This document shows, piece after piece, positions 5,655 to 54,806 of a DNA stretch of 64,000 nt. The notes under the pieces were generated by a model. It was given only the letters and a program-made list of their open reading frames with translations, made no database searches and had not been told where the DNA came from. The DNA comes from Chloroflexota bacterium. GTDB lineage: Bacteria > Chloroflexota > Dehalococcoidia > JACPQD01. The first letter of the stretch is position 1; each line of letters opens with the position of its first letter. Both the position numbers and the translations under genes were made by a program. The stretch is taken from assembly GCA_016190665.1 (NCBI GenBank), contig JACPQD010000022.1, positions 20,296 through 84,295 on the forward strand, in the 5' to 3' direction.

Positions 5655-5660
5655 GCAGGC

Positions 5661-7504: not shown

Positions 7505-7515
7505 CTTTCACCTTC

Positions 7516-8529
7516 TTATTCGACGGGTGGAGCCCCATCGCAGTTGCTGGCCTGGGAGCGCTCCCCTGCAGCGTGGCCGCCCATGGTCTCACGCAGTGAG
7601 GCCAGGCGGCTCAGGGTCGAGGCGCAGGAGGGATGGCCCTCTCCCAGGACCCGTCGGCGAATATCCAGCGACTGGAGAAGGCATTGTTCCGCCTCATCGT
7701 ACCTGGAAAGGGCTCGATACAGCAGGCCCATGTTCTCCAGCCCGGTGGCATAGGTAGGGTGGTCTTTGCCCCATGTCCTTGCGGAGGACTCCAGGACCTG
7801 GCGGTACAGTTCCTCCGCCGTTTCATAGTTACCTTGCTTATAGTGGACCCCGGCAAGGCTGTTGAGGGCGGAAGCGTGAAGGGGATCATTCGTGCCCACA
7901 GTCCTGGTGTACAATTCGAGCGCCTGGTGCAAGAGCGACTCAGCCCTGGTCAGATCGCCCTTCGCCAGGCATACCGCTGCCACGTTGCTCAGGCTTGTAG
8001 CATAGGCAGAGGAATCTTCCCCTTCCGTCCGGCGAACAATTTCCATCGCCTCAACGAGCAATTGCTCGGCCTCCTCGTATCTACCCATCTCCTGGTACAG
8101 GAGGGAGAGGTTGTTGAGGTTACTGGCGTAGAGGAAATGCCCCTCCCCGACAGTCCTGGCGTAAATGCGCCAAGCCGCAAGGAACAGTTCTTCGGCCTTG
8201 GCGTAGTCCCCGGTAAGCCGGTACAGGCCCGCCAGGTTGTTTATGCAGGTGGCATAGCCGGGGTGTTCCTTCCCCACGCTGTTCTCCAGGATCCGCGCCG
8301 CTCTGAGATAGGAGGACTCGGACTTGCCATAGTCGCCGGTGGCGCGGTAGAGACCACCCAGATCATTAAGGATGCTGGCATACTCGGGATGGTCCCCGCC
8401 ATATCGGCGACGCATCAAGACCGCGACCTGTCGCAGCAGTGGCTCAGCTTCCCGGAAGCGTGTCTGGCGACTCAGGGCGGAGATCTGCTCGTTGAGCTCT
8501 TCCAGGTCTTCGCTCGGCATAGCGGCCAA
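7516..8529 (-). CDS. Tetratricopeptide-repeat protein (TPR_12-like)
   Basis: 337 aa made of about seven 42-aa repeats with the pattern LNNLAxLYxxxGxYxxAExLY. Confidence 0.85.
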   Translation of the reverse strand: MAAMPSEDLEELNEQISALSRQTRFREAEPLLRQVAVLMRRRYGGDHPEYASILNDLGGLYRATGDYGKSESSYLRAARILENSVGKEHPGYATCINNLAGLYRLTGDYAKAEELFLAAWRIYARTVGEGHFLYASNLNNLSLLYQEMGRYEEAEQLLVEAMEIVRRTEGEDSSAYATSLSNVAAVCLAKGDLTRAESLLHQALELYTRTVGTNDPLHASALNSLAGVHYKQGNYETAEELYRQVLESSARTWGKDHPTYATGLENMGLLYRALSRYDEAEQCLLQSLDIRRRVLGEGHPSCASTLSRLASLRETMGGHAAGERSQASNCDGAPPVE

Positions 8530-8546
8530 AGAGGGCAGGACCTCGA

Positions 8547-8924
8547 CTAGCCGAGGTCCTTGTCGCCCAGGGCCTCCTGAAGAATACTATCCGCTGCAGC
8601 GCGCCCTTGCTCCCGGAGAGCGCACAGCGCCGCCTTGCAGATCGCCTCCGGCTCCGTGTAGGCCCCGTTCCCGAAATCCGCCCAGCAAATGGCGTCGTCG
8701 AAGCCCTTCTCAATCATCTTGTCGACGACCATCTCAGCCCAGTCCATATCCTCGGAATAGGGCAACGGGTCGCCCCAGATCGAGCTCCCATCTTCGGGAT
8801 GGATTGACTGTTCCATGTATCCGAAGAACTGGTCTTTCACGACCCTCTTTCCCATCACCTGCTCAGCCACCAGGGCGTTCAGTTCCGCGCCGGGTTTCAT
8901 CGCCAGGATTTCCTCTAGACTCAC
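8547..8924 (-). CDS. Small acidic hypothetical protein
   Basis: 125-aa ORF in operon spacing between the TPR and DUF4125-like genes. No motif I can name with confidence. Confidence 0.45.
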   Translation of the reverse strand: MSLEEILAMKPGAELNALVAEQVMGKRVVKDQFFGYMEQSIHPEDGSSIWGDPLPYSEDMDWAEMVVDKMIEKGFDDAICWADFGNGAYTEPEAICKAALCALREQGRAAADSILQEALGDKDLG

Positions 8925-8984
8925 GCTTCACCTCCAGATCTTGGACCGTCCCAGGCTCTTGGGCTGACAACGGCTTCCAGCGAA

Positions 8985-9614
8985 TCAGCCATCTAGCCCC
9001 GCGCCTAGTCGTGCGTTCGCCTCTTCCAGAGAGGCGAATCCGTAGCGCTTCACCGTGTAGCTGTACGCGATTTCGGAGCCGTTGACCTTTTCAGACTCCT
9101 GCCCTAAGAGATTTTCATAATAGAGCTGCAGGGTCTTCAGGGAATAGGTGGCCAGTTCTCCCCGGAGATAGGTCTCCACCGACGTCACATCAAACGTATC
9201 GTCTGAGCTACGAAGCGGCCTTCCCCTTCCAAGAACATAGGGATACTTGTCCAGAAGTGCCTCATCCCATTTGAGTACGATCTCAGCGATGCGGTCGATG
9301 AGGTCAAGAGTTTCAAAAGAAAGTAGGGGAAGAAGATGTTGGATGCCGGCATATTCCTCTGGTGAGGTAGACTTCATCATCCGGGCGTATTTCTCGGTCA
9401 ACAAGTTCCTTTCCGCCGCTTCGGCTTCGGTCAAGTCATTCAGATAGCTTTCCAGGGTAGGATCCGACCAGCTCATGGCCTGGCCGGCCCTGTTGATCTC
9501 AAAGGTCTTAAAGTCCTCCTGGCATGCGGCAGTGCCGCCTATGTTCGGCACCTTCTGGAACATTCTCCACTCGATGTCTATGATCCGGTCGGTGACGTCT
9601 TGCCTTCGGTCCAT
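8985..9614 (-). CDS. DUF4125-like protein
   Basis: 209 aa. N-terminal IEWRMFQKVPNIGGTAACQ motif recalled for DUF4125. Confidence 0.5.
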   Translation of the reverse strand: MDRRQDVTDRIIDIEWRMFQKVPNIGGTAACQEDFKTFEINRAGQAMSWSDPTLESYLNDLTEAEAAERNLLTEKYARMMKSTSPEEYAGIQHLLPLLSFETLDLIDRIAEIVLKWDEALLDKYPYVLGRGRPLRSSDDTFDVTSVETYLRGELATYSLKTLQLYYENLLGQESEKVNGSEIAYSYTVKRYGFASLEEANARLGAGLDG

Positions 9615-9733
9615 ATTTCAGCTCCTACGATGTGACTCCACGATTCTTTACCGAACGCCAAACCGGCCCTCGACGCTTCAAATATCGTGCTTTGGTCTGG
9701 CGAGTTATACGACTTTTGTCGGATATCCTTCGA

Positions 9734-9895
9734 GAAATGATGAATGCGGAATCGGTCATGCCCCGATGTAGTCGGGGCGCCACCAAGGATGAAAACCGTG
9801 GTTCTATACCCCGCACTCGAGTACGGGGTATACCGCGTACTTTAGTGCGCGGTGTGTGTACGAATTCCTATTTTCGTAGCGATGATGAGTGATGA
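9734..9895 (+). repeat. Copy B of the four-hairpin intergenic element
   Basis: Hairpins: GCCCCGA-tgtag-TCGGGGC, ACCCCG-N10-CGGGGT, ACCGCGTAC-ttta-GTGCGCGGT, TACGAA-ttcctatt-TTCGTA. Same order as copy A. Confidence 0.6.
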
Positions 9896-10165
9896 ATGCC
9901 CCACCCCCTTTTGGCCGTAATGCAGGGCTTGTCGCCGCCAGGGCTTAGAGCCGACGACTGAAAGCTGAAAGCCCCCGGACCGGATGGCAAACGGATAAAG
10001 GGATGGGCGTACGGGCGCCCAACGCGTAGGGGCGGCCGTCCCTGTCCGCCTGGGGTTGGGGCGGATTCCCACTCCTCGCCCCGCGCTTCCCGCTTCTTGC
10101 CCTCACTCCTCTCTTCTCGCTTCTCTCTTCCTGATTCCCGCTTCCTGCTTCGCGCTATGCGCTTC

Positions 10166-11296
10166 TCACCCGTTCAACTCCTCAATGATCTCCGCGAGCT
10201 TCTCGATGCTGACCTCGCATTCTTCGGAGATGCGCCGCAGCTCGCTTTCGGGGACATCCACGCGGGGCCGGGCCACCGGGCCCCAGGGCTCCTGGCGCAC
10301 CTGGAGGCTGATGACGTCCCAGCGGGAATAGTGGCCCAGGCAATCGAAGAGCGCTTTGGCGGTCTTGATCTGGTTGGCGTAGCAGTCGGCGTAGAGGATG
10401 GTCTCCTCACCGACCACCGGGCCCGCCATGAAACGGCCGTGGGGATTGACGATGGCGCTGCCGCCGACGGCGAAGCTGTAGTTCGTGTGGTCGCTGGCCT
10501 TAACGTGCTTCCACCGGGGTGGGAAGTCCTTGTCTCTGAGGATGCCGCTGGCGCTGAGGACGAAGCACTGGGCCTCCAGGGCATAGGACCGGATGACGGG
10601 GTAGATCCAGCAGTCGCCTCCCGCGAGGTCGGGCTGGGGGTCCATGAGGTGGTCGCGGCCGCGACCGCTCCAGGCGCCGGGCCAGACGGCGATGTGGAAC
10701 TCCTCGCCCTTGCTCATCATAGCCGCTTTGACCAAGGTCATCAAGTTCTCGGCGCAGATGAGCCCGCCGATGCGGCCGATCTCCGTATCGAAGACCATGA
10801 GGTCGGAGGCATCGCCCATGCCCCAGTAGGTGCGCTCGGTGAAGGTGGGCATCAGCTTGCGGTGGCGTCCCATGACCTTGCCGTCCCGCCCGATAAAGAC
10901 CAGGCTGTTGTAGACCGTCCGGCTGCCGGGGCGACCGTCCAGCTCGTTGCAGCCCATGACCACATAGGCGCCGGCCGCCTTCGCCGCCTCCCCCAGAACG
11001 GCCGTGTCCTCGCCGCCGACGACGATGGCGTTGTCCTGCAAGGCTATCACATAGTCCGACCACTCGGATGGCCTGCTCTCCCAGCCGATGGTGTGGATCG
11101 CCGGGTACCCGGCGACGAAGGCCTCCGGGAAGACCACCAGCTCCGCGCCGTTGCCACCCGCCTCTTTGATGAGCTTGCACGCCTTATCGATGGTGGCGCG
11201 CTTGTCCATGAAAACGGGGCTGGCCTGCGCAACGGCGACTTTGGCTTTGGAGCGGCCGGAGAGAATTCGTTTTTGAATCAATGGAGGCGCCTCCAA
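10166..11296 (-). CDS. Nitrilase / cyanide-hydratase family enzyme
   Basis: 376 aa. Intact Glu-Lys-Cys triad contexts VVFPEAF, HRKLMPT, LICAEN. Confidence 0.85.
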   Translation of the reverse strand: MEAPPLIQKRILSGRSKAKVAVAQASPVFMDKRATIDKACKLIKEAGGNGAELVVFPEAFVAGYPAIHTIGWESRPSEWSDYVIALQDNAIVVGGEDTAVLGEAAKAAGAYVVMGCNELDGRPGSRTVYNSLVFIGRDGKVMGRHRKLMPTFTERTYWGMGDASDLMVFDTEIGRIGGLICAENLMTLVKAAMMSKGEEFHIAVWPGAWSGRGRDHLMDPQPDLAGGDCWIYPVIRSYALEAQCFVLSASGILRDKDFPPRWKHVKASDHTNYSFAVGGSAIVNPHGRFMAGPVVGEETILYADCYANQIKTAKALFDCLGHYSRWDVISLQVRQEPWGPVARPRVDVPESELRRISEECEVSIEKLAEIIEELNG

Positions 11297-24665: not shown

Positions 24666-26036
24666 CTAAAGCTCAACGTACTCGATAGGGAACATCTCCA
24701 GCGGGTCGGCAGGCTCGACGACGTGCCACATCGTGAAGCGGTAGACCGGCCCGACGGCGATGTCGGAGGGCGCGTAGGGGAAGGCGATGGTGCCCTCGTC
24801 ACAGAGTTTGCCTTCGAAGAAGCCGTTTTTGAATCGGATGCGCGCCAGAGCAAGTAGTTCGTTAGCGAGCTCCTGGGTCTCCGCAACTACCTCTACAATA
24901 ATCCCCAGTTCGTGGGCCTGTGTATCCCTTCTTGGTTCCCACCGTCCCATGACCGCGTTCTTCCCGTACACCCGGAAAACCATCTTGAAAGTAGCCGTAT
25001 CGATGCCCATAGCTTGGGCCCGCTCCACGGTTTGAGACCGCACCATTTCCAGATAATCATCTATGCATCTTATGAGGATGGGGTCTCTCGTCCCGCCGAT
25101 GGTGATGCAGCGGTAACCTGCCAGCTCCACAGCCTCCAGCTTTACCGTATACCTTTCAGACGGCCTCCACCTCATCCCAGAAATGCGCCCCACCCTCTGA
25201 CTGAGGGCTTCGAAACGACATCCAGAGAGGTCCAGCACACCGGAAGGCTCAATGTGGACGTTTGGGTTCTCGTTCTCGTGAAGAAAGAACGACGCAAGGC
25301 TCTCTGGCGTGCACTGCTGCATGGGGTGCAAGGGCTCAGCGAGCAGACTGTCATCCGTGAGGGTGACAAGCAGCCCAGTGTGGCCAAATTTGTGTCTGGG
25401 CACGGCACAGGCGCCACCGCATTCGAGCAGTTTGCCCGCTGTCCAGGCCAGTTCGGGAGGGTAGCCCCGATACACGGGATAGGAGGCAAATACCGCCGCA
25501 TCGTCCGAGCGTCCCGCCAGGACCACTTCGGCGCCGTGTCTGAAGGCTTCGATGTAAGGTTCTACCCCCATCACACCGACGATGCGGCAGCTTCGCCCGA
25601 TCGTATCCTCCTCAAGCGGCCCGGCTGGCCGTAGAGCCTGGACCTTGCCTTCGCTCAGCTTTCGCTTGAGGTAGTCCTTCGGCTGCTCTGCGTGCACCAG
25701 GGCCATCCTGAAATGCAGGTTTTCCTCCCCAGCGATCTCCTCGGCGATTTCGCGTACCCACTGCAAGTGCGGCTCCCCGCCCGCCGAGCCACAACTACCG
25801 ACAACCACTGGAGCATTCAGTCGCCTCCCGGCCAGGAGCATCCATCTGAGGTCGTCTTTGACTGCTCCCCGGTGAGTGAAGGACGTTCCTGAACCGAGAT
25901 AATAGGGTCCCGGGTCAGTGCTGCCGGCATCGACCCCGATGAGATCTGCGCCTCCCTCGAGCGCCCTCTCAAAGTTATCCCGCGCGTAGGAGTAACCTAA
26001 CAGTCCTATCGGCGTTATGAGCTTCAGTTCTTTCAT
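24666..26036 (-). CDS. AtuA-like (DUF1446) acyclic-terpene-utilisation family protein
   Basis: 456 aa. N-terminal ITPIGLLGYSY...GVDAGSTDPGPYYLGSG pattern recalled for DUF1446. Confidence 0.7.
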   Translation of the reverse strand: MKELKLITPIGLLGYSYARDNFERALEGGADLIGVDAGSTDPGPYYLGSGTSFTHRGAVKDDLRWMLLAGRRLNAPVVVGSCGSAGGEPHLQWVREIAEEIAGEENLHFRMALVHAEQPKDYLKRKLSEGKVQALRPAGPLEEDTIGRSCRIVGVMGVEPYIEAFRHGAEVVLAGRSDDAAVFASYPVYRGYPPELAWTAGKLLECGGACAVPRHKFGHTGLLVTLTDDSLLAEPLHPMQQCTPESLASFFLHENENPNVHIEPSGVLDLSGCRFEALSQRVGRISGMRWRPSERYTVKLEAVELAGYRCITIGGTRDPILIRCIDDYLEMVRSQTVERAQAMGIDTATFKMVFRVYGKNAVMGRWEPRRDTQAHELGIIVEVVAETQELANELLALARIRFKNGFFEGKLCDEGTIAFPYAPSDIAVGPVYRFTMWHVVEPADPLEMFPIEYVEL

Positions 26037-26243: not shown

Positions 26244-26467
26244 GATGCCCGATGCCAGCAAGCTGGTTCACCATTACGAGACACTTTAGAAAGTGAAACC
26301 TATTCTACGGTTCCCTCTCATCAGTGAGGGTGGAAACCACAGATACATATCAAGAGTATCGTAAGATTATTCTAGAGGGGAAGGGAAAGGGACATGGAAG
26401 CCGGCCACCTGTCCAAGATCCGGCGGGGCGGCTGGTGCTCGTCATAGGAGGTAGGAGGAGGTTCGGA

Positions 26468-28162
26468 ATGTTCAAGCGCTTGTTGTCCAAGGTGACGATC
26501 TTGCTGCTTCTCGGTCTGGTCTTGTTAAGCTGTGTCCCGGGAACATCGCCAGCTGTGACGTCAAAAGCGGTACCATCGCCTGCGGAGGAAGCTTCGACAC
26601 CCCGACAACCCACGATAACGGTTGCGGGTCCAATACCGACGACGAAACAGGGCGACGAGCAGCCTAAGTATGGGGGAGTCATGACGACTGGACAACCCGC
26701 CGAGCCGGTTAGCTTTGACATCCACCAAGAGTCTGGCGGTCAACACCCACTCTATCTCACGCCAGCTTACAACGGGCTCCTTCAGTATGATCCACTTTCT
26801 TGGCCTGAAGAGAAGATCGTGCCTGACTTGGCAGCAACTTGGCAGACAAGCCCGGACGGCCTGGAATACACGTTCAGGCTCAAGAACGGCGTGAAATGGC
26901 ATGATGGCAAGGCGTTTACCAGCGAAGACGTCAAGTCCAGTCTCGATAGAATTCGCGAGCCGCCCAAGGGAGTACGAAGTCCAAGACAGGGCGCGCTGCA
27001 GCCTGTCGCCCAAGTGAACGCTCCCGCTGTCGATACGGTAACGGTCCGTTTGAACTACGCCAGTGCCTCGCTGGCTTCGAATGTAGCGACAGATTGGTTT
27101 GCGATACTGCCGAAACACGTGCTCGAAGCAAAGGGTGACATGAAGCGGGATATCATCGGGACCGGGCCTTTCAAGTTCAAAGGATACACGCCTGGGACGA
27201 CCCATGAGGATGTGAGAAATACCGGCTATTTCGTTAAGGATCGGCCTTACCTGGATGGCATTCGGCTCTACCTGGTGAAGGACGATGCCACGCGTTTCGC
27301 AGCCCTTCGTACGGCAAGAGTTGTATACCTGCCGTATCCATACGGCGTTAGTCCGGCCCAGGCCGGGGTTGCGAGGGCGGACACAAATCTGGTGGTCCAA
27401 TCGAATTTTCAGCCGACTCTCCATCACTTTCGCATGAACCTCGAGAAAGCGCCTTGGTCCGACCCAAGGGTCCGCAAAGCCGCAAGCCTTGGCATCGACC
27501 GTCAGGCGTTCATTAAGGCAGTGTTTGCAGGATCGGCCATTCTTGGTGTTCAAATGTCGTCGGCCGGACCTTGGGGAATACCAGAGGATGAACTGCTTAA
27601 GATGCCTGGCTACCGACAACCGAAAGAGGTGGACATCGCTGAAGCTAAGAAACTCCTGGCGCAAGCCGGTTTTGCGGACGGGTTCAAAACCAGCATTCTG
27701 ACCAGAAGCGAGGAACAACACCAAAGGCGAGGTACCTTTGTTGCGGCAGAGCTCGCAAAGCTGGGGATCAAAGCTGAACTTGTGGTGAAAGCCGCTGCCA
27801 CCTATGATGACACTCTCATGAGGGGAGCGTTCGACGCGCATACCCATGGGACAGCTACAGCGCTAGAAGATCCGGATCTGAGGTACGGTGAGAACTATGT
27901 AACCGGCGGGGGACGCAATTATGGGAAATACACTAACCTGAGGATAGACGAACTCTACGAGAAGCAGTCCCGTGCCTTGGACGTGGCTGAACGCAAGAAG
28001 ATAGTTCGAGAGATGCTCATGATACTTAATCAGGATAATCCTGATGTTCCTCTCGCCTGGTCACTGACGCAGATCGCTCACACAAAACAGGTGAGGAATT
28101 ATAAGATGGCTTCGTCCAACCAGATCAACAACAAGCATCAGGAAGTATGGCTGGCCGAATAG
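26468..28162 (+). CDS. Family-5 ABC substrate-binding lipoprotein
   Basis: Start moved to MFKRLLSKVTILLLLGLVLLSC (AGGAGGAGG RBS). Close paralogue of the next gene. Ends EVWLAE. Confidence 0.9.
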   Translation: MFKRLLSKVTILLLLGLVLLSCVPGTSPAVTSKAVPSPAEEASTPRQPTITVAGPIPTTKQGDEQPKYGGVMTTGQPAEPVSFDIHQESGGQHPLYLTPAYNGLLQYDPLSWPEEKIVPDLAATWQTSPDGLEYTFRLKNGVKWHDGKAFTSEDVKSSLDRIREPPKGVRSPRQGALQPVAQVNAPAVDTVTVRLNYASASLASNVATDWFAILPKHVLEAKGDMKRDIIGTGPFKFKGYTPGTTHEDVRNTGYFVKDRPYLDGIRLYLVKDDATRFAALRTARVVYLPYPYGVSPAQAGVARADTNLVVQSNFQPTLHHFRMNLEKAPWSDPRVRKAASLGIDRQAFIKAVFAGSAILGVQMSSAGPWGIPEDELLKMPGYRQPKEVDIAEAKKLLAQAGFADGFKTSILTRSEEQHQRRGTFVAAELAKLGIKAELVVKAAATYDDTLMRGAFDAHTHGTATALEDPDLRYGENYVTGGGRNYGKYTNLRIDELYEKQSRALDVAERKKIVREMLMILNQDNPDVPLAWSLTQIAHTKQVRNYKMASSNQINNKHQEVWLAE

Positions 28163-42875: not shown

Positions 42876-43337
42876 AGCCAAAGTAGGACAGCAACGACCT
42901 GTGCAACGCTGAAGAGCAACCTTCTCCGGCGCACACCATCCACGGCGCTTATCGCGAAGTTGGCCATCGTCCCGCTGGAACAACAGTTCACCTCCGCCAT
43001 TACGCTCCGTGAATTACTGTACGGGGCGTACCGCTTGGGAACACAGTCAGGAACGCTCCTGGAGCGACTGGAGAAGACACTGCTGCGAAACCTGCCTGTC
43101 ATACCCTTCGATGCTGAAGCCGCATATACATATGGGGAAACCAGAGGGGAGTTAGAGCGACGCGGGATTGTCATAGGGGATGCCGATCTACGTATTGCCG
43201 CCATCGCTCTGGCGAGACATCTCACCGTAATTACCGGAAACGTCCGTCGCTTCCAGCGAGTACCGGACTGCCGGTGGAAAACTGGCTGGATCTCTGAAAT
43301 ACGCACCCGCTCTCAGGCGCAATTCCCGGCAACGTAG
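42876..43337 (+). pseudogene. vapC: 5'-truncated PIN-domain (VapC-like) toxin remnant without antitoxin
   Basis: The TSAITLRELLYG ... GDADLRIAAIALARHLTVITGNVRRF core is present. The N-terminal LDTNV-type Asp segment is missing because the frame opens only 30 nt after the SBP stop. No VapB-like ORF lies upstream. Confidence 0.5.
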
Positions 43338-45832: not shown

Positions 45833-46162
45833 TCAAGCGTTTCCCTTCATCGTCCTCCGTATCTTGGCTGCCTGCTCCATATGCACGCGCCCGTGGTCGA
45901 CGTAGTGGGAGACGCCCTTCGTGCGGCCCTCCTCCCACTTGCGGTCGTGGGCCAGGAGGTGCTCCAGCATCTGCCGGAGAGACCACTCTCCCGGCTCCGG
46001 CTCCTTCTCCCAGAGGTGAGCGCCCAGCCGGGCCGCCTCCTCGGAGAGACAGGCGCGGACTTCTCTGAGGCCTTCGATCACTGCGCTGTCCGCCTTGAAC
46101 TCGCCCACCAGGGCGACGTGGGCCTCGTCCAAGTGCCTGAATAGTTCCGTCCACGGCGCCAT
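45833..46162 (-). CDS. DinB-superfamily-like small protein
   Basis: Start moved to MAPWTELFRHL (AAGGAGG RBS). WSLRQMLEHLLAHD helix typical of DinB_2-like four-helix bundles. Confidence 0.5.
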   Translation of the reverse strand: MAPWTELFRHLDEAHVALVGEFKADSAVIEGLREVRACLSEEAARLGAHLWEKEPEPGEWSLRQMLEHLLAHDRKWEEGRTKGVSHYVDHGRVHMEQAAKIRRTMKGNA

Positions 46163-46444
46163 GTTTTGCCTCCTTAGCAGCTCCACGGCTGTCAGTCGAA
46201 TAGACGGAAGGTAGTATAACCGCCCCAAGACCCTATTGTCCAGTAAGGAGCGATTCCGACCGGCTCACGAGCCAGGTGGCCGCCAGGCCCTGGTTCACCT
46301 TGATGGGTTTCAATTGGGGATGGGGAAAAGCGAGGTCCCTGAAGAATTTTGGGCAGTGGTTGTGGAGGTGGCGCCCCGACGTGTCAGGTCGAGATTCGGG
46401 GCTCGCTTTTGCCTTGAGGAGCGGGATATCTGGCAGGAAGTGCA

Positions 46445-46477
46445 AGAGAGACGCGGTTTCAGAAACCGCGTCTCTCT
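46445..46477. terminator. Perfect 15-bp-stem / 3-nt-loop hairpin downstream of the DUF5667 gene pair
   Basis: AGAGAGACGCGGTTT-cag-AAACCGCGTCTCTCT. Followed by a second 10-bp hairpin CAGGGGGCGT...ACGCCCCCTG. No U-tract. Confidence 0.45.
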
Positions 46478-46647
46478 CAGGGGGCGTACCGATTCTGGCG
46501 GTGACGCCCCCTGATCTGCTTACCTTGCTCGGCCTGCTTCAGAGGTGCATGGTTGGGCCTCTGTGCCAGGTGAGTGTCGTCCCCGATCACGTACTCGGTC
46601 ACGACCCCATCCGCCCGGGGCCTCGGGCGTCGTTGCGGCCGCGCCTT

Positions 46648-48018
46648 TTATCGGCCGCTGCGCCCACTCCCTCCTCCTCCGCCGCCTCCACGCCCGCGAT
46701 CTTCATCGTCGCCTCCACGCCCGCGTCCTCTATCGTCTTCCCCCGCTCCAGGTGTCGCAGGTGGAGGGGGGGCGTCAGGCGTCGGGGGAGCAGCAGGACC
46801 TACCGTCGCAGGGGGAGCCGGTGGGCTGGCCGGAGGCGTTGGAGTGCCGTCGCGTCCACGCCCACGCCCTCGGTCGTCATCCCCTGGCTCAGGCGTCCGG
46901 GTACCGTCGGGCCCACCCGGGCCGCGGTTGCGTCCACTGTCGTCCCCTGGTTCAGGCGTCCGGCTAGCATCCGGGCCCCCGGGGCCACGATTGCGCCCAC
47001 TGTCGTCCCCTGGCTCAGGCGTCCGGGTGGCATCGGAGCCGCCGGGGCCACGGTTGCGCCCACTGTCGTCCCCTGGTTCAGGCGTCCGGGTGGCATCGGG
47101 GCCGCCGGGGCCACGGTTGCGCCCACTGTCGTCCCCTGGCTCAGGCGTCCGGGTACCATCGGGCCCACCCGGGCCACGGCCGCGCCGTCGGTCATCGTCC
47201 CCCGGTCCGGGAGTCGCTTGCGCGTCGTCGCCGCCACGGCCACGACCTCTGCCTCTGTCGTCCTCCCCCGTCCTGGGTGTTGCCTGTGCGTCGTCGCCGC
47301 CACGGCCACGACCTCGCCCTCTGTCATCGTCTCCCGCTTCGGGGGTCCGGGTAGCGTCAGGGCCGCCGGGGCCGCGATTGCGTCCTCTATCGTCTTCGCC
47401 CGCCCTGGGCGTTGCCGAAGCGTCATCGCCGCCACGCCCACGACCTCGGCCTCTATCGTCTTCCCCGGCTCGCGGCGTTGCGGTGACCGGTGCGGAGGCG
47501 GTCCCAGTTGGGCCGCCTCTCTCGCCTTCGGAGTCCGCCCTGCCGCCGGCCGCCGTCAAGCCCGTCTTCGCTTTCTCAAGAGCTTTGGCCAGGGCAGCCT
47601 TTGCCGACTCAGGCGCCCGCTCGGCGGCCGCCGAGAGCGCTTGTTGCTGGCGGGCCAGGTTTTCCGCCAGCCGCGCCTTTATGCGGCCAACATCTTTACC
47701 TGAGGCTGCCGCCTGGCCGAGGTGTTGTTCGGCCTCAGCTATGTCCGCGACGAAAGCCGCGGCCGCGGCATTGGCCGCATTGGCATTCTCGGCAAGGCTC
47801 GCCTTCCGGATCTCGTCGAGTCGCTTGCCAGCCAGATCAAGGTAGGTCTGCGCCTTATCCTCGTCGCTGAAGGCCAGCGCAAGCTGCAGCCCCTCCACGG
47901 CGACTTTCACCGGATAAAGGGCATCGCTGGGCAGGGCCTCCTGAGACGCGTATACGGCCCCGCCCCCAGCAGCCGTGGTCAGGGCAAGTACAAGAGCCAC
48001 GATTACTGCGAACATCAC
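46648..48018 (-). CDS. Membrane-anchored DUF5667-like protein with long Pro/Gly/Asp/Arg repeat tail
   Basis: 456 aa. One TM helix, then LPSDALYPVKVAVEGLQLALAFSDEDKAQTYLDLAGKRLDEI (DUF5667-like helical domain), then ~270 aa of tandem repeats. Confidence 0.8.
   Translation of the reverse strand: MMFAVIVALVLALTTAAGGGAVYASQEALPSDALYPVKVAVEGLQLALAFSDEDKAQTYLDLAGKRLDEIRKASLAENANAANAAAAAFVADIAEAEQHLGQAAASGKDVGRIKARLAENLARQQQALSAAAERAPESAKAALAKALEKAKTGLTAAGGRADSEGERGGPTGTASAPVTATPRAGEDDRGRGRGRGGDDASATPRAGEDDRGRNRGPGGPDATRTPEAGDDDRGRGRGRGGDDAQATPRTGEDDRGRGRGRGGDDAQATPGPGDDDRRRGRGPGGPDGTRTPEPGDDSGRNRGPGGPDATRTPEPGDDSGRNRGPGGSDATRTPEPGDDSGRNRGPGGPDASRTPEPGDDSGRNRGPGGPDGTRTPEPGDDDRGRGRGRDGTPTPPASPPAPPATVGPAAPPTPDAPPPPATPGAGEDDRGRGRGGDDEDRGRGGGGGGGSGRSGR
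46860..47200. repeat. About five in-frame copies of a 63-bp (21-codon) tandem repeat
   Basis: The unit encodes NRGPGG(P/S)DATRTPEPGDDSGR on the minus strand. Stretches of more than 140 nt are nearly identical to 48330..48470 in the neighbouring gene. Confidence 0.85.
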
Positions 48019-48081
48019 TATCCTCCTCCGGGCTGTCCCCAGCCCCCTCTTTGCCTACGGGCTTGGCAGCGTCTTGGCCGC

Positions 48082-49584
48082 TCACCGGTCCCTTCCGCGC
48101 CCTCCGTTGCTGTCTCCACGCCCTCCATCATCGCCGCCGCGCCCGCGCCCTCTATCGTCTCCACCCGACTGAGGCGGCGCCGAGGGGCCGGCCGTCGGAC
48201 CTGGCGGTCCAGCCGCTGGTGTTGGTGTGTCGTCGCGCCCGCGCCCTCGTCCCCTATCGTCTCCTGGTTCAGGGGGCGCCTGGGCGTCGGGGCCGCCGGG
48301 GCCACGGTTGCGCCCACTGTCGTCTCCTGGCTCAGGCGTCCGGGTACCATCGGGCCCACCCGGGCCGCGGTTGCGTCCACTGTCGTCCCCTGGTTCAGGT
48401 GTCCGGGTAGCATCCGGGCCGCCGGGGCCACGATTGCGCCCACTGTCGTCCCCTGGCTCAGGCGTCCGGATAGGATCGGGGCCGCCGGGGCCGCGACCGC
48501 GCCCACTGTCGTCCCCTGGCTCAGGCGTCCGGGTGGCATCGGGACCGCCGGGGCCGCGATTGCGCCCTCGGTCGTCTTCGCCAGGCTCACGCGTCGCCGT
48601 AGGGCCGCTGGGGCCGCGGTTGCGCCCCCTGTCGTCGTCCGGTGACGACGCTCCCACGGCCACGGGCGCCCCGCCCAGGCTGACGACCAGCGAGCTGTAA
48701 CCGGCATGGAGGGCATCAAAATTCCTGGCGCTTATGTGCCCGGAGCGCTGTAAGGCGTTCAGCTCGTTAAGGAAGGCATCCAGGTTGTCGAGGGCAACCT
48801 TGTCCTCTCCGCGCGCCAGGGCGGTAATGGCCGCGCTTAGCTTGGCGAGCAGTCCGTTGAAGCTCTGGCCGGGTACGTTGGCATCGGTGGCCAGCTTCTC
48901 CACATCGGACATCAGCCTGTTCAGGTCCCTCTCCATGTTCGAAGCCAGCGCGCTGGCGGCCCCCGGCTGCCCAGCGGGTAGGGTCGAGGGCGCACCGTCC
49001 CCGGTAACGCCGACCACCGTCAACCCCTTTTGCACTCGGGCAAGAGCTCTAACCACGGCGGCCTTTGCCGGCTCAGGCGCACGCTCCGCGGCCACCGATA
49101 GCGCTCGCTGCTGGCGGGCCAGGTTTTCGGCCAGCCGACCCGTGACGCGGCCAGTATCTTCACCCGAGGCCGCGGCGCGCCCCAGGTGTTGTTCTGCCTC
49201 AGCTAAGTCCGCAACAAGGCTCGCCGCTGCCGCCCCGATCACATCAGGGTCCCTCGCGGCGAGGCTCGCTCTCTGGATCTCCTCGAGCCGCTTGGCGGCG
49301 AGTTCAAGGTAGGTCTGCGCCTTATCCAGGTCGCTGAAGGCCAGCGCGAGCTGCAAGTCCTCGCCAGCGACTTTTATCGGATAAAGGGAGTCGCTGGGCA
49401 AGGTATCTTGAGACGCATAGACGACCACGCCGCCGGCTGCTGTGGTCAGGGCAGCGATGAGGGCGGCAATTAGTGTGAGGCGCGCCACCCTCCCCCGGGA
49501 ACCGGCCTCTTGAGATGCGTATCCGGCGATGCCCCACACCGCTGTGGCCAGGGCCGCCGCAAAAGCAACAACTAACGTGAGCAT
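48082..49584 (-). CDS. DUF5667-like protein with duplicated TM segment, FIMAH-like helical hairpin and 63-bp-repeat tail
   Basis: 500 aa. Two near-identical TM segments, DUF5667-like domain, LDNLDAFLNELNALQRSGHISARNFDAL segment, then about six 21-aa repeats. Confidence 0.8.
   Translation of the reverse strand: MLTLVVAFAAALATAVWGIAGYASQEAGSRGRVARLTLIAALIAALTTAAGGVVVYASQDTLPSDSLYPIKVAGEDLQLALAFSDLDKAQTYLELAAKRLEEIQRASLAARDPDVIGAAAASLVADLAEAEQHLGRAAASGEDTGRVTGRLAENLARQQRALSVAAERAPEPAKAAVVRALARVQKGLTVVGVTGDGAPSTLPAGQPGAASALASNMERDLNRLMSDVEKLATDANVPGQSFNGLLAKLSAAITALARGEDKVALDNLDAFLNELNALQRSGHISARNFDALHAGYSSLVVSLGGAPVAVGASSPDDDRGRNRGPSGPTATREPGEDDRGRNRGPGGPDATRTPEPGDDSGRGRGPGGPDPIRTPEPGDDSGRNRGPGGPDATRTPEPGDDSGRNRGPGGPDGTRTPEPGDDSGRNRGPGGPDAQAPPEPGDDRGRGRGRDDTPTPAAGPPGPTAGPSAPPQSGGDDRGRGRGGDDGGRGDSNGGRGRDR
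48270..48640. repeat. About six in-frame copies of the same 63-bp tandem repeat
   Basis: Same unit as 46860..47200. Confidence 0.85.
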
Positions 49585-49639
49585 TACTGTCCTCCTCGGC
49601 TCTCCCCACTATTCGTATACCCTAACTTTCCGCAAAGCG

Positions 49640-49716
49640 ACTAGTATGATGATAGCTTTAAGGACGTGAAGAAGTCATAAAACGCGGTGTGAAGAAGTTG
49701 CATACTTGTGACGTAT
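49640..49716 (-). promoter_or_regulatory. Conserved upstream module U1 (shared by three DUF5667-locus transcription units)
   Basis: Aligns with 52644..52726 and 54692..54774. Contains direct repeat GTGAAGAAGT twice and an ACGTCA/TGACGT-type inverted pair. Confidence 0.45.
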
Positions 49717-50191
49717 TGAGGAGAAGGAAAACCTGTAGGGGCAGGTGTCCCTGCCCGCCCAGACCGAGAGTGGCGCGCCCCGAGGTAGTGGGGGCCAGGG
49801 GTCAGGGGATGGGGTCAACGTAGTGCAGGGGCTCGTCCCCTGCTCAGCTAGTACCAGGTTGTTAGAATCGGCGTAACATATTTCGGGCCAAACGACCGTT
49901 TTTCTAACTTTCCTCTCCCTTGCTGGGAGAGGCTAGAGCCCGCCCTGAGCCTGCCGAAGGGTGAGGGTGGAAGGTGAAGCTCGCCCTCACCTTAGTCCTC
50001 TCCCGCTGAGGAGAGAGGAAACATGACGGTCTTCTGTGCAACTGAGTATTAGAGCACCCTCCGATGTCTCGGCGCCCCGAGGAGGGGCAAAAGAAAAGGC
50101 GCCATGGCTGGCGCCCCGCCGGCGGGGGCACAGTCAGGGTGCTGTCACGCGCAGCTCGCATGCGCGCGACAGCGCCCGTTCTGCCAAGTGG

Positions 50192-51694
50192 TTACCTTCC
50201 CCGCCCTGGCCCTCCGGAGGGGCGGTTCGGGTCGGCTTGTCTGCCACGTGGAGAGTCATCCCGGCCACGGTCACGGTCACGATCTTGGTCTCGACCACGC
50301 TCCCGGTCTTCCTGTCCGGGGGGCTCAGGTGGTGCTTGGCGGTCATCCTCCCGGTCGCGACCGCGCCCACGTTCGCGATCGCGCTCAGGTTCCGCCGTCG
50401 GCGCGGGCGTAACGGAGCCGGTAGCGGTCGGCGTTGGCGAAGTTGATCCATCTCCCCTCCTGGCCCTGGGCGTCCCGCCCAGCCTGGCGACCAGAGCACT
50501 GTAGCTAGCGTAGAGCGCCTCATAGTTCGCCGCGCTTATGTGGCCGGAGCGTTCGAAGGCATTGAGTTCATTGAGGAAGGCATCCAGATTGTTCAGGGCA
50601 ACCCTGCTCTGGCCGCGCTCCAACGCTGCCTTGGCGGCCTCCAATTTGGCCAGCAGTCCTCTATAGCTCTGTCCGGAGATCTTCGGATCGGAAGCCAGCT
50701 TCTCGACATCGGAGGCCAATCTGTCGACGCCTGCCTCCGGGCTCAGGGCGGTAGCCGTAGGCCTGGCCGTGCCCGTCGGCTGCGGCGTGGTCGGCGGCGT
50801 GCCGCCGGCGCCCGCCGTGGGCGTGGGAGTGCCCATTGCCGGCCCACCCGTTGGCGTGGCTGTTGTCTCGATGACCTCGGCAGGCCGAGCCCCAGGCGTC
50901 GCCGCGGAGCGGCCGCCGGGCAGCGTCAGGCCCTTTCCCGCCCGTTCGGCAGCCTTGGCCAGAGCGGCCCTGGCCGCCTCCGGAGCCCGCTCCGCAGTCG
51001 CCGCCAGCTTCTGTTGTTGCCGCGCCAGGTTTTCAGCGAGCCGCGCTGCCAGGCGGCTGACGTCTCTTCCCGAATTCGCTGCTTGTTCTAGATGTTGCTG
51101 GGCCCCGGCCACGTCTTGAACGAAGGCGTCTGCAGCGGTGTTGACGGCGCCGGCATTGGCCGTCTGGCTTGCCCGCTGGATCTCTTCGAGACGTTTGGCG
51201 GCCAGATCGACGTAGGTCTGCGCCTTGGCTTCGTCATTCGCGGCCAACGCGAGCTGCACGATCTCGACGGCGGTCTTCACCGAGTAGAGGGCATCGGTGG
51301 GCAGGGCATCTTGAGAAGCGTAGACCGCTCCACCTCCGGCCGCCGAAGTCAGCGCAATAACCAGGGCTGCGATTAGTGCAGGCATCCCCATCCTCCTCTT
51401 TGGAGACATCGTCTGTCCCCAGTCACCTATCTGCCTACATAAACGCTGCAATAGCGAAGGCGTTACACCGGCTTCAGCGGATATGGTCTCGATGAGAGCG
51501 ACTCTGGCCCGCAAGCGAAATGCTGGATCAGGCGCCACTGGCGCCACTGGGGGGATGGCCCGGGCGATCTCCAGAAGCTGATGCAGCTCGTCGGCCTGGG
51601 CCGGGTGCGCCGCCACGCATTCTTCCACGCTCATCTGCCCGGATTTGATGGCGGCGAGGCAACCGGCGAGCAGTTCAGGTGTGACCTTCTTCAT
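50192..51694 (-). CDS. Anti-sigma factor with extracytoplasmic DUF5667-like, FIMAH-like and RD/RG-rich tail domains
   Basis: 500 aa. ATGA start/stop overlap with the ECF sigma gene. N-terminal cytoplasmic helix domain, one TM, DUF5667-like domain, Pro/Thr linker, LNNLDAFLNELNAFERSGHISAANYEAL, then a charged tail. Confidence 0.8.
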   Translation of the reverse strand: MKKVTPELLAGCLAAIKSGQMSVEECVAAHPAQADELHQLLEIARAIPPVAPVAPDPAFRLRARVALIETISAEAGVTPSLLQRLCRQIGDWGQTMSPKRRMGMPALIAALVIALTSAAGGGAVYASQDALPTDALYSVKTAVEIVQLALAANDEAKAQTYVDLAAKRLEEIQRASQTANAGAVNTAADAFVQDVAGAQQHLEQAANSGRDVSRLAARLAENLARQQQKLAATAERAPEAARAALAKAAERAGKGLTLPGGRSAATPGARPAEVIETTATPTGGPAMGTPTPTAGAGGTPPTTPQPTGTARPTATALSPEAGVDRLASDVEKLASDPKISGQSYRGLLAKLEAAKAALERGQSRVALNNLDAFLNELNAFERSGHISAANYEALYASYSALVARLGGTPRARRGDGSTSPTPTATGSVTPAPTAEPERDRERGRGRDREDDRQAPPEPPGQEDRERGRDQDRDRDRGRDDSPRGRQADPNRPSGGPGRGR

Positions 51695-52275
51695 CGTGAA
51701 TCGACCTCTCGTGGCAACAGGCGCCTCAGCTCCGTGAGCGCCCGGTGTTGAATGACGCGGAGGTTGCCCTCGCTCTTCCCGAGGGCAGCCGCAATATCGG
51801 CATATTCCAGATCTTCGACAAAGCGCATGACGATCACCTGTTGTTGCTCGGGCTTCAAGCGTTTGACGGCCTGCCGGACCGACTCGCGATCGTAGCTTGC
51901 GAGGGCCTCGGCCTCGGGGTTGACTCCGGGCTCGGCGCTGGCGATGTCCCAGTCCAGATGAGTAGTCTCCTTGGTGCGTCGAAAGAAGCTGATCGCGGCG
52001 TTGTGCGCTATGGTGAGCAGCCAGGCGACGAAGGACGCCTTCGTGTGCTGGTAGCGCGCGATAGCCCGCCAGGCCCTCAGAAAAACCTCCTGCGTCAAAT
52101 CCTCGGCGTCGGGTCGCGTGCCGACCAGGTAATATACGTAACGATACACCCGCCCGAGATAGCGGTCATACAACGCGGCAAAGGCCTGGACTTCGCCGGC
52201 GATCGCCGCGTCGACCAGACCGCGTTCCGCATTTTGACTGTCAGCCTCGTCCTTCTGCACTTCGTCCAATTGCAC
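51691..52275 (-). CDS. ECF-type RNA polymerase sigma-70 family factor
   Basis: 194 aa. Region 2 (DAEDLTQEVFLRAW) and region 4 (YADIAAALGKSEGNLRVIQHRALTELR). Confidence 0.9.
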   Translation of the reverse strand: MQLDEVQKDEADSQNAERGLVDAAIAGEVQAFAALYDRYLGRVYRYVYYLVGTRPDAEDLTQEVFLRAWRAIARYQHTKASFVAWLLTIAHNAAISFFRRTKETTHLDWDIASAEPGVNPEAEALASYDRESVRQAVKRLKPEQQQVIVMRFVEDLEYADIAAALGKSEGNLRVIQHRALTELRRLLPREVDSR

Positions 52276-52288
52276 TCTCTTATCTCTC

Positions 52289-52314
52289 TAACGTCCGGAT
52301 ACCGAGAACGTTAC
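52289..52314 (-). promoter_or_regulatory. ECF-like promoter candidate GTAAC-N16-CGTTA
   Basis: Minus strand GTAAC (52310..52314), 16-nt spacer, CGTTA (52289..52293). It is only ~14 nt from the GTG start, so it would give a nearly leaderless mRNA, which weakens the call. Confidence 0.3.
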
Positions 52315-52643
52315 AGCTTTTCGGTATCATACCACAACGCCTCCCACCCAAAGCACAATGACCCAATAACCTAGAAACAAACACCAAACAGATCTCAAGA
52401 CTGAGTAAGTAAGCCGCATTTGGCCATTGTATCTTGTAGCTTACCAGAAAGGGATTTCGCGGTTCAGAGCCTGTTGCGCTCGAACCGCTGTCCCCCAGAC
52501 CACTTCGCCCTGGTCTCTCCGCCCCAGTTTGCGCCGGCGAAGAATCTGAAGGGCGTTATCGGCCCTCCGTTGGCCTCTCCTCGCCTCGATTTCCTCGGGG
52601 TGGCCGAGAGCCTCTTGATGCTTGCCAGCGTCCGAGAGAAAGT

Positions 52644-52726
52644 GTCCTCGACATTTTCGATGATACCGGCAGTGGCGTGAAGATGTCATAGAACGCACTC
52701 GCAGGAAGTTACTGACTTATGACGTC
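52644..52726 (-). promoter_or_regulatory. Conserved upstream module U3, ~370 nt upstream of the sigma gene
   Basis: About 70% identical over 83 nt to 54692..54774. Confidence 0.45.
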
Positions 52727-52950
52727 TCAGAAGAGATGTGCAAGGGCTGGCATGTGCGGAGCAGCACGGATGGATCGAAGGGCGCGTCAAGGTGAACATC
52801 GAGATGGACATATCTTGAGGAATCGTTGCGGAGGGTCTGAACGGCCGGGTCGTCTTCCATGGACTGGCCATGCTAACCGACCTGGACGGCATCGGGGCGC
52901 TTGCCTGGGCTGCGCCGGTTGCCCTCGTGGATGATAGCGATGGGGCCTAT

Positions 52951-54528
52951 CTAATCCCGCCCACGGTTGTCTGGTCGTGGGGTGGGGGTTGGTGTGGGTC
53001 GAACGCCGCCGTCGCCGTCCGGGCGTGGGGTCGGCGTGGGTGTGGCCTGCGCGCCGCTGTCGCGGTCACCGCCGTCCGGGCGCGGGGTCGGCGTCGGTGT
53101 GGCTTGCGCGCCGTCGTCGCGGTCACCGCCGTCCGGGCGCGGGGTCGGCGTTGGCGTGCCTTGCGCGCCGTCGTCGCCGTCACCGCCGTCCGGGCGCGGA
53201 GTCGGCGTCGGTGTGGCTTGCGCGCCGTCGTCGCGGTCACCATCTCCACCGTCGCCGTCTCCCTCTCCGGGAGGCTCAGGCGTGGGCGTCGGCTCGGGTG
53301 TTGCCGTGGGCTCTCGCGTTGGGGTGGGATCCCGCGTTGGGGTGGGCTCAAGCGTTGGCGTGGGCTCCCGCGTTGGCGTGGGATCCCGCGTTGGGGTGGA
53401 CTCGGGCGTCGCCGTGGCGCTATCATCGCCGGCTGGCGCAGGCCCGCTATGGTTTGTCGCTCCTGGCGTTGGAGTAGTCGTGGCAACATCGGGGACTCGC
53501 CCGGGCCCGCTGGTCGCCGCCGGCGTTGGGGTAGCCGAGGGAATAGCTGTCGGGGCAGGACCGATAGCCGTTGGAGTCGCGACAACCGCTGCCGCCGGCC
53601 CTTTCCTGGCCCCAGGTGTTTCACCCAGGCTAGCGACGAGAGCACTGTAGCTCGTGAATACGGCATCGTAGTTCCGGGCGCTTATGTGGCCTGAGACCTG
53701 CAAGGCGTTCAACTCATTGAGGAAGGCATCCAGGTTGTCGAGGGCCGCCCTGTCCTGGCCACGCGCCAGAGCTGTGATCGCGGCGTCGAGCTTGGGCAGC
53801 AGGCCGTTGAAGCTCTGGCCCGGTATTCTGGGATCAGCCGCCAGTTTCTCTACATCCGAAATGAGCCTATTGAGGTTGTCCTCCGAGGTCGAGGCAATCG
53901 CGGGCAAAACTGAGGCGTCTTCCGCGGCTTCGGCCAGCAGCGGCACCGCGCCGCCGCTGGCCGCCACCAGACCCCTCTCGGCTTTCGCAATAGCTCTGGT
54001 CACAGCAGATCTCGCCGGCTCCGGCGCCCGAGCCGTGGCCGCGGATAGCGCTCGCACCTGGCGGGCCAAGTTTTCGGCCAGTTGCGCTGCAATGCGGGTA
54101 ACGTCTTTCCCCGAGACCGCCGCAAGGCCAAGGTGCTGTTGGGCCCCAGCCAGGTCGTCAACAAAACTCATCGCCGCGGCGTTGGCAGCGTTCTCGTTAC
54201 CGGAGCGGCTCGCTCTCTGAATCTCGGCGAGGCGATTGGCGGCGAGCTCAAGTTAGGTCTGCGCCTTAGCCTCGTCGCTGAGGGCCAGCGCAAGCTGCAA
54301 TTCCTCAACCGCGGTTTTTACCTGGTAGAGGGCCTCGCTAGGCAGGGTGTCTTGAGACGCGTAGACGGCCACGCCCCCGGTCGCCGTGGTCAGTGCGGCT
54401 ACGAGGGCAGCAATCAGTGTGAGCCCCGCTGCCTTGCCCCGGGAAGCGGCCTCTTGAGACGCATACCCGGCGACACCCCAGGTCGCCGTAGCCAGGGCAA
54501 GCACGAGTGCAACGATTAATGCGGGCAT
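52951..54528 (-). pseudogene. Fourth DUF5667-like paralogue interrupted by an in-frame TAA (54253..54255)
   Basis: ORFs 54253..54528 and 52951..54171 share a frame. TAA replaces the Tyr of the conserved AKAQTY(L/V)(E/D)LA motif. Otherwise a complete domain set plus a Thr/Pro and 57-bp-repeat tail. Confidence 0.7.
53010..53240. repeat. About four in-frame copies of a 57-bp (19-codon) tandem repeat
   Basis: The unit encodes ATPTPTPRPDGGDRDDGAQ on the minus strand. Followed by hexapeptide (E/D)PTPTR repeats up to ~53400. Confidence 0.8.
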
Positions 54529-54691: not shown

Positions 54692-54774
54692 GTCCTCGAC
54701 ATTGCAGATGATAACCATTATGGCGTCAAGAAGTCATAAAGCGCAGTTTGACAAGATTACATACTTATCACGTC
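54692..54774 (-). promoter_or_regulatory. Conserved upstream module U2
   Basis: See U1 and U3. Lies 164 nt upstream of the ATG at 54528. Confidence 0.45.
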
Positions 54775-54806
54775 TCGGAGGGGGAGCGAGACCGACTCCT
54801 CTCAGC

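Follow-up and report, generated by a model that had tools for sequence, protein, structure and literature searches.

An expanded BldN/RsbN-like sigma/anti-sigma locus with paralogues of the anti-sigma ectodomain in a Chloroflexota genome

Some anti-sigma factors have accessory extracytoplasmic partners, RseB in the case of RseA and CnrX in the case of CnrY, and anti-sigma factors of the RsiV type undergo site-1 cleavage by signal peptidase. Here we describe a locus in which the genes for a sigma factor of the extracytoplasmic function (ECF) type and its anti-sigma factor are surrounded by paralogues of the anti-sigma factor. It lies in a stretch of 64,000 nucleotides (nt) of a Chloroflexota metagenome-assembled genome contig (JACPQD010000022.1; the whole stretch analysed is referred to below as the window, and all positions are window positions). 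The closest described system is BldN-RsbN of Streptomyces venezuelae (class III anti-sigma domain; PDB 6DXO). RsbN is made up of 117 residues in the cytoplasm, a single membrane helix and a large outer domain with no assigned function (PMC6101532). Its homologues have been reported only from Streptomyces (PMC6101532) or from actinomycetes (PMC4255298), where Chandra and Chater noted a very divergent RsbN-like gene beside nearly all bldN orthologues (PMC4255298). BldN belongs to group ECF121, whose sigma factors carry an N-terminal pro-sequence (PMC7826278).

We conclude that the window locus is an expanded form of this partly known regulatory module and not a new type of system. To our knowledge, the recurrent sensor-domain paralogue and the four-copy array with a promoter swap are undescribed. 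In the direction of transcription, which is the minus strand throughout, the array consists of copy 4 (52951..54528), the ECF sigma factor gene (51691..52275, 194 residues), copy 3, which is the anti-sigma factor gene (50192..51694, 500 residues), copy 2 (48082..49584, 500 residues, with the ribosome-binding site GAGGAGG) and copy 1 (46648..48018, 456 residues, with the ribosome-binding site GGAGGAGG and a likely start at the ATG at 48015). The gaps between copies 3 and 2 and between copies 2 and 1 are 607 and 63 nt, respectively. An earlier note, made from the sequence of this DNA, had placed four related minus-strand genes here, and the open reading frames lie where it put them, with the correction that the one at 52951-54528 is interrupted by a TAA codon.

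The four copies can be aligned from a hydrophobic segment through a helical module with 43-63% overall identity, and a transmembrane segment and the motif YASQ(D/E)xLP(S/T)(D/E)xLYxVK...KAQTY are common to all of them. The module is DUF5667, as the earlier note had supposed: Pfam searches matched PF18915 in copies 1 to 4 with 49.6, 42.5, 49.2 and 51.0 bits, respectively (gathering cut-off 27 bits; the stop codon of copy 4 was replaced by Tyr). The FIMAH domain (PF22888, gathering cut-off 24.8 bits), which the note had recognised in three of the genes, was matched in copies 2 (28.9 bits), 3 (40.0 bits) and 4 (28.3 bits) and appears as a four-helix unit in structural models; copy 1 has no FIMAH match in Pfam. 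In a full-text search of the literature DUF5667 was not mentioned, and the matches to 'FIMAH' were unrelated fimA/fimH genes.

The BldN-like sigma factor and its anti-sigma factor

The product of the sigma factor gene consists of Sigma70_r2 and r4 regions only (PF04542; PF04545/PF08281) and scores 115 bits against TIGR02937 (cut-off 42.9). Its top NCBIfam match is TIGR02952, the 'BldN family', with 158 bits, which is below the equivalog cut-off of 206. The top match in the PDB is S. venezuelae BldN (6dxo_A, E=1.2e-32) and the next ECF sigma factor follows at 3.6e-17, placing the window protein far nearer to BldN than to any other solved ECF sigma factor. The BldN residues that contact RsbN (Val4, Glu11, Phe15, Tyr19, Asp20) are conserved, Glu11 and Asp20 corresponding to E28 and D37 of the window protein. 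It differs from BldN in having no N-terminal pro-sequence, and the alignment to mature BldN begins at residue 20. Fourteen nucleotides upstream of the sigma start lies the ECF-type motif TGTAAC-N16-CGTTA (52289..52315, minus strand), the sole match in the array, which we regard as a putative autoregulatory promoter; the motif is also conserved before the sigma genes of related loci.

The start codon of copy 3 overlaps the sigma stop codon as ATGA (a 4-bp overlap), and among the four copies only copy 3 has an N-terminal extension, of about 105 residues. The earlier proposal that this gene alone carries the anti-sigma domain and overlaps the sigma gene is thus borne out. The AlphaFold model of copy 3 comprises a cytoplasmic helical domain (residues 6-74, window 51473-51679; helices 6-17, 23-29, 31-46 and 57-74), a transmembrane helix also evident from hydropathy (residues 105-127, window 51314-51382), the DUF5667 helical bundle (residues 130-254, window 50933-51307), a disordered linker, the FIMAH four-helix domain (residues 319-404, window about 50483-50740) and a disordered tail of Arg, Asp, Gly and Pro. 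The predicted local distance difference test (pLDDT) score is above 90 for the five-helix DUF5667 bundle at residues 137-254. The hydrophobic helix is single, with about 375 residues beyond it. A terminator-like hairpin with a T-run, found as a pattern match only in a consensus scan, follows the gene (50096..50117, minus strand).

As a single sequence, the N-terminal domain of copy 3 had no match in Pfam, NCBIfam or the PDB. The top PDB match of an anti-sigma profile built from 21 homologues was the RsbN chain 6dxo_D, at a weak E=0.026 and covering RsbN residues 39-84. In this weak alignment RsbN R67, L70 and L50, which were found conserved or essential in the crystal study (PMC6101532), correspond to R64, L67 and I47 of copy 3, and R64 is at least 90% conserved in the family. 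When the copy 3 model was compared with the PDB by Foldseek, no match fell under E=0.1. The matches above that value were limited to generic helical bundles and to a FIMAH-like part of 7nsn, a GH92 mannosidase, on a domain of which the copy 3 FIMAH superposes; no solved relative of DUF5667 was among them. Like RsbN, the window anti-sigma factor is encoded next to its sigma factor and is predicted to be a single-pass protein with a cytoplasmic helical domain of about 105-117 residues and a large outer domain; putative equivalents of the RsbN contact residues are conserved in its family. Unlike that of RsbN, its gene overlaps the sigma gene and has no promoter of its own. The locus further differs from BldN-RsbN in its FIMAH domains, its repeat tails, its three paralogues without an anti-sigma domain and its host, a member of the Chloroflexota.

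Directly after the membrane helix stands the motif (V/A)YA-(S/A)Q (the hyphen marks the possible cut), which anti-sigma factors and orphans alike retain in the Chloroflexota clades. It resembles a signal-peptidase site, and cleavage there may be the regulated step. This recalls the RsiV-type anti-sigma factors, with the difference that the RsiV ectodomain is unrelated and that the motif is absent from members of the family in Pseudonocardiaceae, which have LLLSRDALPGD there.

Full-length anti-sigma factors of the family also have a conserved Met just before the membrane helix (…RRMGMPALI…; Met105 of copy 3, window 51382-51384). Copies 1 (48015) and 4 (54528) and many database gene calls start exactly at this Met, where translation might also begin internally. 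Gene callers are misled by it, as the truncated calls P0012 and P0035 show. About 5,200 cluster representatives were matched by the DUF5667 module; this list was not used to estimate orphan frequency, because many 'N-terminal' DUF5667 proteins begin at the conserved internal Met, and both of the two such representatives that were checked were truncated gene calls. Most family members, copy 3 included, end after the low-complexity tail in a short basic motif (…GRGR, …GKR, …RGKR), which might be a sorting or anchoring signal.

Architecture, promoters and history of the orphan copies

The earlier note had described the remaining three copies as orphans. This is supported in that the anti-sigma-domain profile has no match in copies 1, 2 and 4, and needs qualifying in that one of them, copy 4, is broken by a nonsense codon. 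Copy 1 starts straight with the hydrophobic segment, ending in VYA-SQ, which is followed by DUF5667 and a repeat tail of 296 residues. In copies 2 and 4, which have the same architecture, the hydrophobic segment is doubled, as the note had seen and as hydropathy and AlphaFold confirm. The AlphaFold model of copy 2 has hydrophobic helices at residues 2-23 and 31-58 with an Arg-rich loop between them, then DUF5667 and FIMAH, both modelled with confidence and as in copy 3, and a disordered tail of 200 residues made of 21-residue repeats. By the positive-inside rule, the Arg-rich loop would be cytoplasmic and the ectodomain would lie outside. Copy 1 would then have no cytoplasmic residues at all, and copies 2 and 4 would have only those of the loop, about 8-12 in number.

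The orphans are paralogues of the anti-sigma factor and have the membrane segment and the sensor module in common with it, so they might be taken for extra anti-sigma factors or alternative sensors for this or another sigma factor, one of the roles the earlier note had suggested. Given the absence or shortness of any cytoplasmic part, the negative result with the anti-sigma-domain profile and the absence of a second sigma gene from the array, we consider this very improbable; judging from their sequences, the orphans are unable to bind sigma because they have no cytoplasmic anti-sigma domain. The note's other suggestions, decoys (to which we add modulators) and surface proteins, are both candidate roles.

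The low-complexity tails, which the note had found to differ between the copies, are made of tandem repeats (all on the minus strand): 63-bp and 66-bp repeats in copy 1 (46876..47471; units such as RTPEPGDDSGRNRGPGGPDAT), 63-bp repeats in copy 2 (48287..48636) and 57-bp and 18/36-bp repeats in copy 4 (53013..53417). In composition they are polyampholytes with abundant Gly, Arg, Asp and Pro, except in copy 4, where the tail is instead rich in Pro and Thr. Between copies 1 and 2 the tail repeats are 82-84% identical versus 72-78% for the folded domains, which is consistent with exchange between repeats. The G+C content is 64-68% across window 46000-54000 versus 55-62% in the flanks, because the repeat tails are GC-rich; these tails also yield long spurious reading frames on the opposite strand, for example 46276-47703 (plus strand).

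The in-frame TAA of copy 4 is at 54253-54255, where the three paralogues read TAC (the Tyr of KAQTY), inside a 15-mer otherwise identical to the other three copies, and it yields two reading frames of 91 and 406 residues. Copy 4 is therefore either a pseudogene or the site of an assembly or sequencing base error. Since the contig is metagenome-assembled and the tails contain 57-66-bp tandem repeats, the array as a whole might be an assembly artefact of a repetitive region. This is hardly conceivable, because the folded parts of the copies are only 67-78% identical in DNA (a difference of 22-33%), their architectures differ, and the flanks and intergenic regions are unique. Doubt is confined to the single TAA base and to the number of tail repeats, whose units are 82-92% identical and which could be mis-assembled. 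The earlier note had allowed that homology among the four might fail or that the array might be a repeat artefact; what we found are matched domains in copies of limited identity with unique flanks.

Over the membrane-plus-DUF5667 module, synonymous divergence (dS) is 0.6-0.7 among the orphans and 1.4-1.7 between the orphans and copy 3, and the ratio of nonsynonymous to synonymous divergence (dN/dS) is 0.15-0.33. It follows that the duplications are old and that purifying selection has acted on the module; the stop codon of copy 4 must be recent. These values also bear on the suggestion that the additional copies no longer have a function and are duplicates in decay. The nonsense codon of copy 4 and the loss of FIMAH from copy 1 fit such decay, and conservation of the array is not demonstrable, as no close relative with the same array was found. 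However, we think decay quite unlikely in view of the low dN/dS over a dS of 0.6-1.7, the intact frames of copies 1 and 2 with their strong ribosome-binding sites and conserved promoters, and the confident model of both folded domains of copy 2.

The putative promoters of the array were identified by alignment and promoter scan. An 88-nt element (repeat family D11) is found on the minus strand before copy 2 (49633..49720), about 370 nt upstream of the sigma gene (52644..52731) and upstream of copy 4 (54692..54779), and has been conserved at these three sites while their surroundings diverged. At each site it contains a sigma-70-like promoter, namely ATGACT-N18-TATCAT at 49678-49649, ATGACA-N18-TATCAT at 52689-52660 and ATGACT-N18-TATCAT at 54737-54708. 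No ECF promoter motif was found upstream of copies 1, 2 or 4 with one mismatch allowed. The array would be transcribed as three units whose distal promoters are paralogous, one with copy 4, one with sigma and copy 3, and one with copy 2 and copy 1. The unit of sigma and copy 3 additionally has the proximal ECF promoter. The shared element, the ECF promoter and the link to BldN/RsbN all go beyond the earlier note.

The 5' end of the element (49696-49720, 52707-52731 and 54755-54779, minus strand) contains short direct and inverted repeats (GACGTCATAAG … TATGAC), and this part could be an operator or a relic ECF promoter. A GTAAC-N12-CGTT-like string within this 5' part was rejected as an ECF promoter because its spacer is 4 nt too short. 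Between the distal element and the ECF promoter and sigma start runs a leader of about 330-370 nt (52316-52643, minus strand), which has no Rfam match, as is true of the entire window, and of which a 385-nt fold is only slightly better than shuffled sequences (z = -2.2). The only other match to GTAAC-N16-CGTTA in the window, at 25992-26017 (plus strand), lies 300 nt upstream of a gene for an ABC-type substrate-binding protein (26324-28162); we did not count it as a regulon member because of this distance from the next reading frame and because the 5' end of a divergent gene overlaps with it. A gene for a PIN-domain (VapC-like) protein is located a few kb from the array (42960-43337, plus strand).

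The simplest history of the array would be a duplication, followed by a deletion with fusion and then by reduplication. The whole sigma/anti-sigma operon would have been duplicated long ago. One copy would then have lost its sigma gene together with the ECF promoter and the region for the anti-sigma domain through a deletion, fusing the distal sigma-70-like promoter to the part encoding the membrane segment and ectodomain. The resulting orphan would have been duplicated further, and copies 2 and 4 would have regained a charged cytoplasmic loop through doubling of the transmembrane segment.

Related loci in other genomes

The comparison set contained 125 loci, 90 from genomes and 35 from metagenomes. 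Of 106 cases in the genome scan, 82 have the DUF5667 gene directly after a gene for an ECF sigma factor, as do 32 of the 35 loci in the metagenome scan, and this arrangement spans Chloroflexota, Pseudonocardiaceae and candidate phyla. Six close relatives have the two-gene pair only. No close relative with the same array was found in the genome and metagenome scans. More than one DUF5667 gene is present at ten loci, the window included. The earlier note had not recognised an arrangement of this kind; it is not unique to the window, as at least eight other loci from Chloroflexota have DUF5667 or FIMAH paralogues without an anti-sigma domain next to the pair, although no such locus has more than two. 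The window array, with three orphans, is the largest in the sample.

Short orphans of 166-327 residues, composed of a signal-like segment and DUF5667, adjoin the pair at loci L023, L024, L025, L028, L031, L036 and L045. At L023, L024, L028 and L045 the gene order is sigma, orphan, anti-sigma; the orphans of these four loci form a clade of their own, which indicates an older, retained duplication. The orphan at L127, in the FIMAH-bearing clade, has a membrane segment, FIMAH and a tail and no DUF5667 bundle. The orphans of the window cluster with the window's own anti-sigma gene and are therefore an independent, lineage-specific expansion. Upstream of eight of the ten orphan-type genes we found GTAAC-N16-CGTT, a motif with a background of about one per 35 kb per strand in the loci, and the orphan elsewhere is therefore a predicted target of its cognate sigma factor.

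Two loci encode longer orphan-type proteins, of 327-349 residues (L028 978-1961 and L102 9920-10969), in which a further helical region is present and the C terminus bears the Cys motif GCxxCR[HR]; no ECF promoter lies within 260 nt of either gene. The Chloroflexia locus L044 has three tandem pairs of sigma and DUF5667 anti-sigma genes (5275-11131), a different route to multiplication of the module.

In Amycolatopsis and other Pseudonocardiaceae, the gene that comes after that of a BldN-like sigma factor (6dxo_A, E=1.6e-49) encodes a membrane protein with DUF5667. The Amycolatopsis sigma factor has an N-terminal extension of about 65 residues and scores 169 bits against TIGR02952, below the cut-off, and the DUF5667 genes carry their own GTAAC-N17-CGTT promoter. 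Alignment of the Pseudonocardiaceae family with the Chloroflexota family by hhalign gave 99.4% probability and extended from the anti-sigma helices up to and including DUF5667. These neighbours of BldN-like sigma genes lend some indirect weight to the idea that the ectodomain of S. venezuelae RsbN may itself be of the DUF5667 type. With the Amycolatopsis homologue as the query, only Pseudonocardiaceae were among the matches listed, and a query with the 46-residue RsbN fragment aligned in 6dxo_D gave a 77-residue Streptomyces fragment only.

Possible roles of the orphan copies

We propose that the locus encodes a BldN/RsbN-like ECF module together with exported paralogues of its ectodomain, which would act outside the membrane on the same sensing step; in our judgement this proposal is about equally likely to be right or wrong. 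The single-pass anti-sigma factor would hold sigma at the membrane, its cytoplasmic helices binding sigma and its DUF5667 bundle, FIMAH bundle and disordered tail facing outward. The orphans would be exported or membrane-anchored ectodomain proteins that either associate with the ectodomain of the anti-sigma factor or vie with it for a ligand or protease. We infer the export of the orphans, their interaction with the anti-sigma factor and the direction of its effect from the homology and architecture of the copies, their promoters and purifying selection, and the recurrence of orphans elsewhere.

Several points count against this proposal. The match to RsbN is weak (E=0.026), and the Pseudonocardiaceae profile has no match to RsbN 6dxo_D. 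Copy 1 has no positive charge ahead of its hydrophobic segment, and one copy, copy 4, is already broken. The window orphans do not have the ECF promoter seen before orphans elsewhere, which makes the regulatory link less direct, and the sigma-70-like promoter is a consensus match only. Pairing between DUF5667 domains is itself putative.

The absence of the ECF promoter is also what would be expected if the orphans were independent envelope or surface proteins, tied to the pair by common ancestry and position only, in which the DUF5667 and FIMAH bundles would be structural or binding modules held off the membrane by the long disordered repeat tails. The orphans have sigma-70-like promoters of their own. 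The tails are long, variable and repetitive, as regions that span the wall or lie at the surface typically are. The family contains many short proteins that have a classical signal peptide and no domain other than DUF5667, and FIMAH occurs in the extracellular multi-domain mannosidase 7nsn as well. We nevertheless regard this explanation as possible rather than probable, as the same 88-nt element precedes the sigma operon, which suggests co-regulation, and the orphans that lie beside the pair and carry the cognate ECF promoter in eight other genomes are hard to explain without a functional tie.

An action of exported paralogues on the sensing step would be analogous to that of RseB on RseA or CnrX on CnrY, in that the outer domain of the anti-sigma factor would be the target of another exported protein, which is encoded next to the pair and, in the relatives of the window locus, is predicted to be expressed from the cognate ECF promoter. 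It would differ from these systems in that there is no relation in sequence or fold and that the partner in the window is a paralogue of the sensor domain, its interaction being putative.

A bolder and rather unlikely extension of this proposal is that a homotypic sensing loop between the anti-sigma ectodomain and free paralogues is a general and so far undescribed trait of a large family of BldN/RsbN-like systems, in Chloroflexota and outside them. Export of DUF5667 proteins would be driven by the sigma factor or, as in the window genome, by a shared promoter, and the anti-sigma factor would read their abundance or assembly state through contacts between DUF5667 domains, for example by masking or exposing the AYA-SQ site. 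If so, what the pathway puts out would be paralogous to the sensor that controls it.

Within its structural class, RsbN is the one anti-sigma factor that has been studied; the signal to which it responds is not known, and its occurrence was believed to be limited to Streptomyces. The window locus and its relatives point to a much larger family that has the BldN-like sigma factor, the promoter type and the DUF5667 sensor in common. The four-copy array offers a set of natural variants, which differ in the presence of FIMAH, in having one membrane segment or two and in their tails. In many lineages of the family the same promoter type also stands before an additional, free sensor domain, which provides a testable idea of how this class of anti-sigma factors may be controlled.

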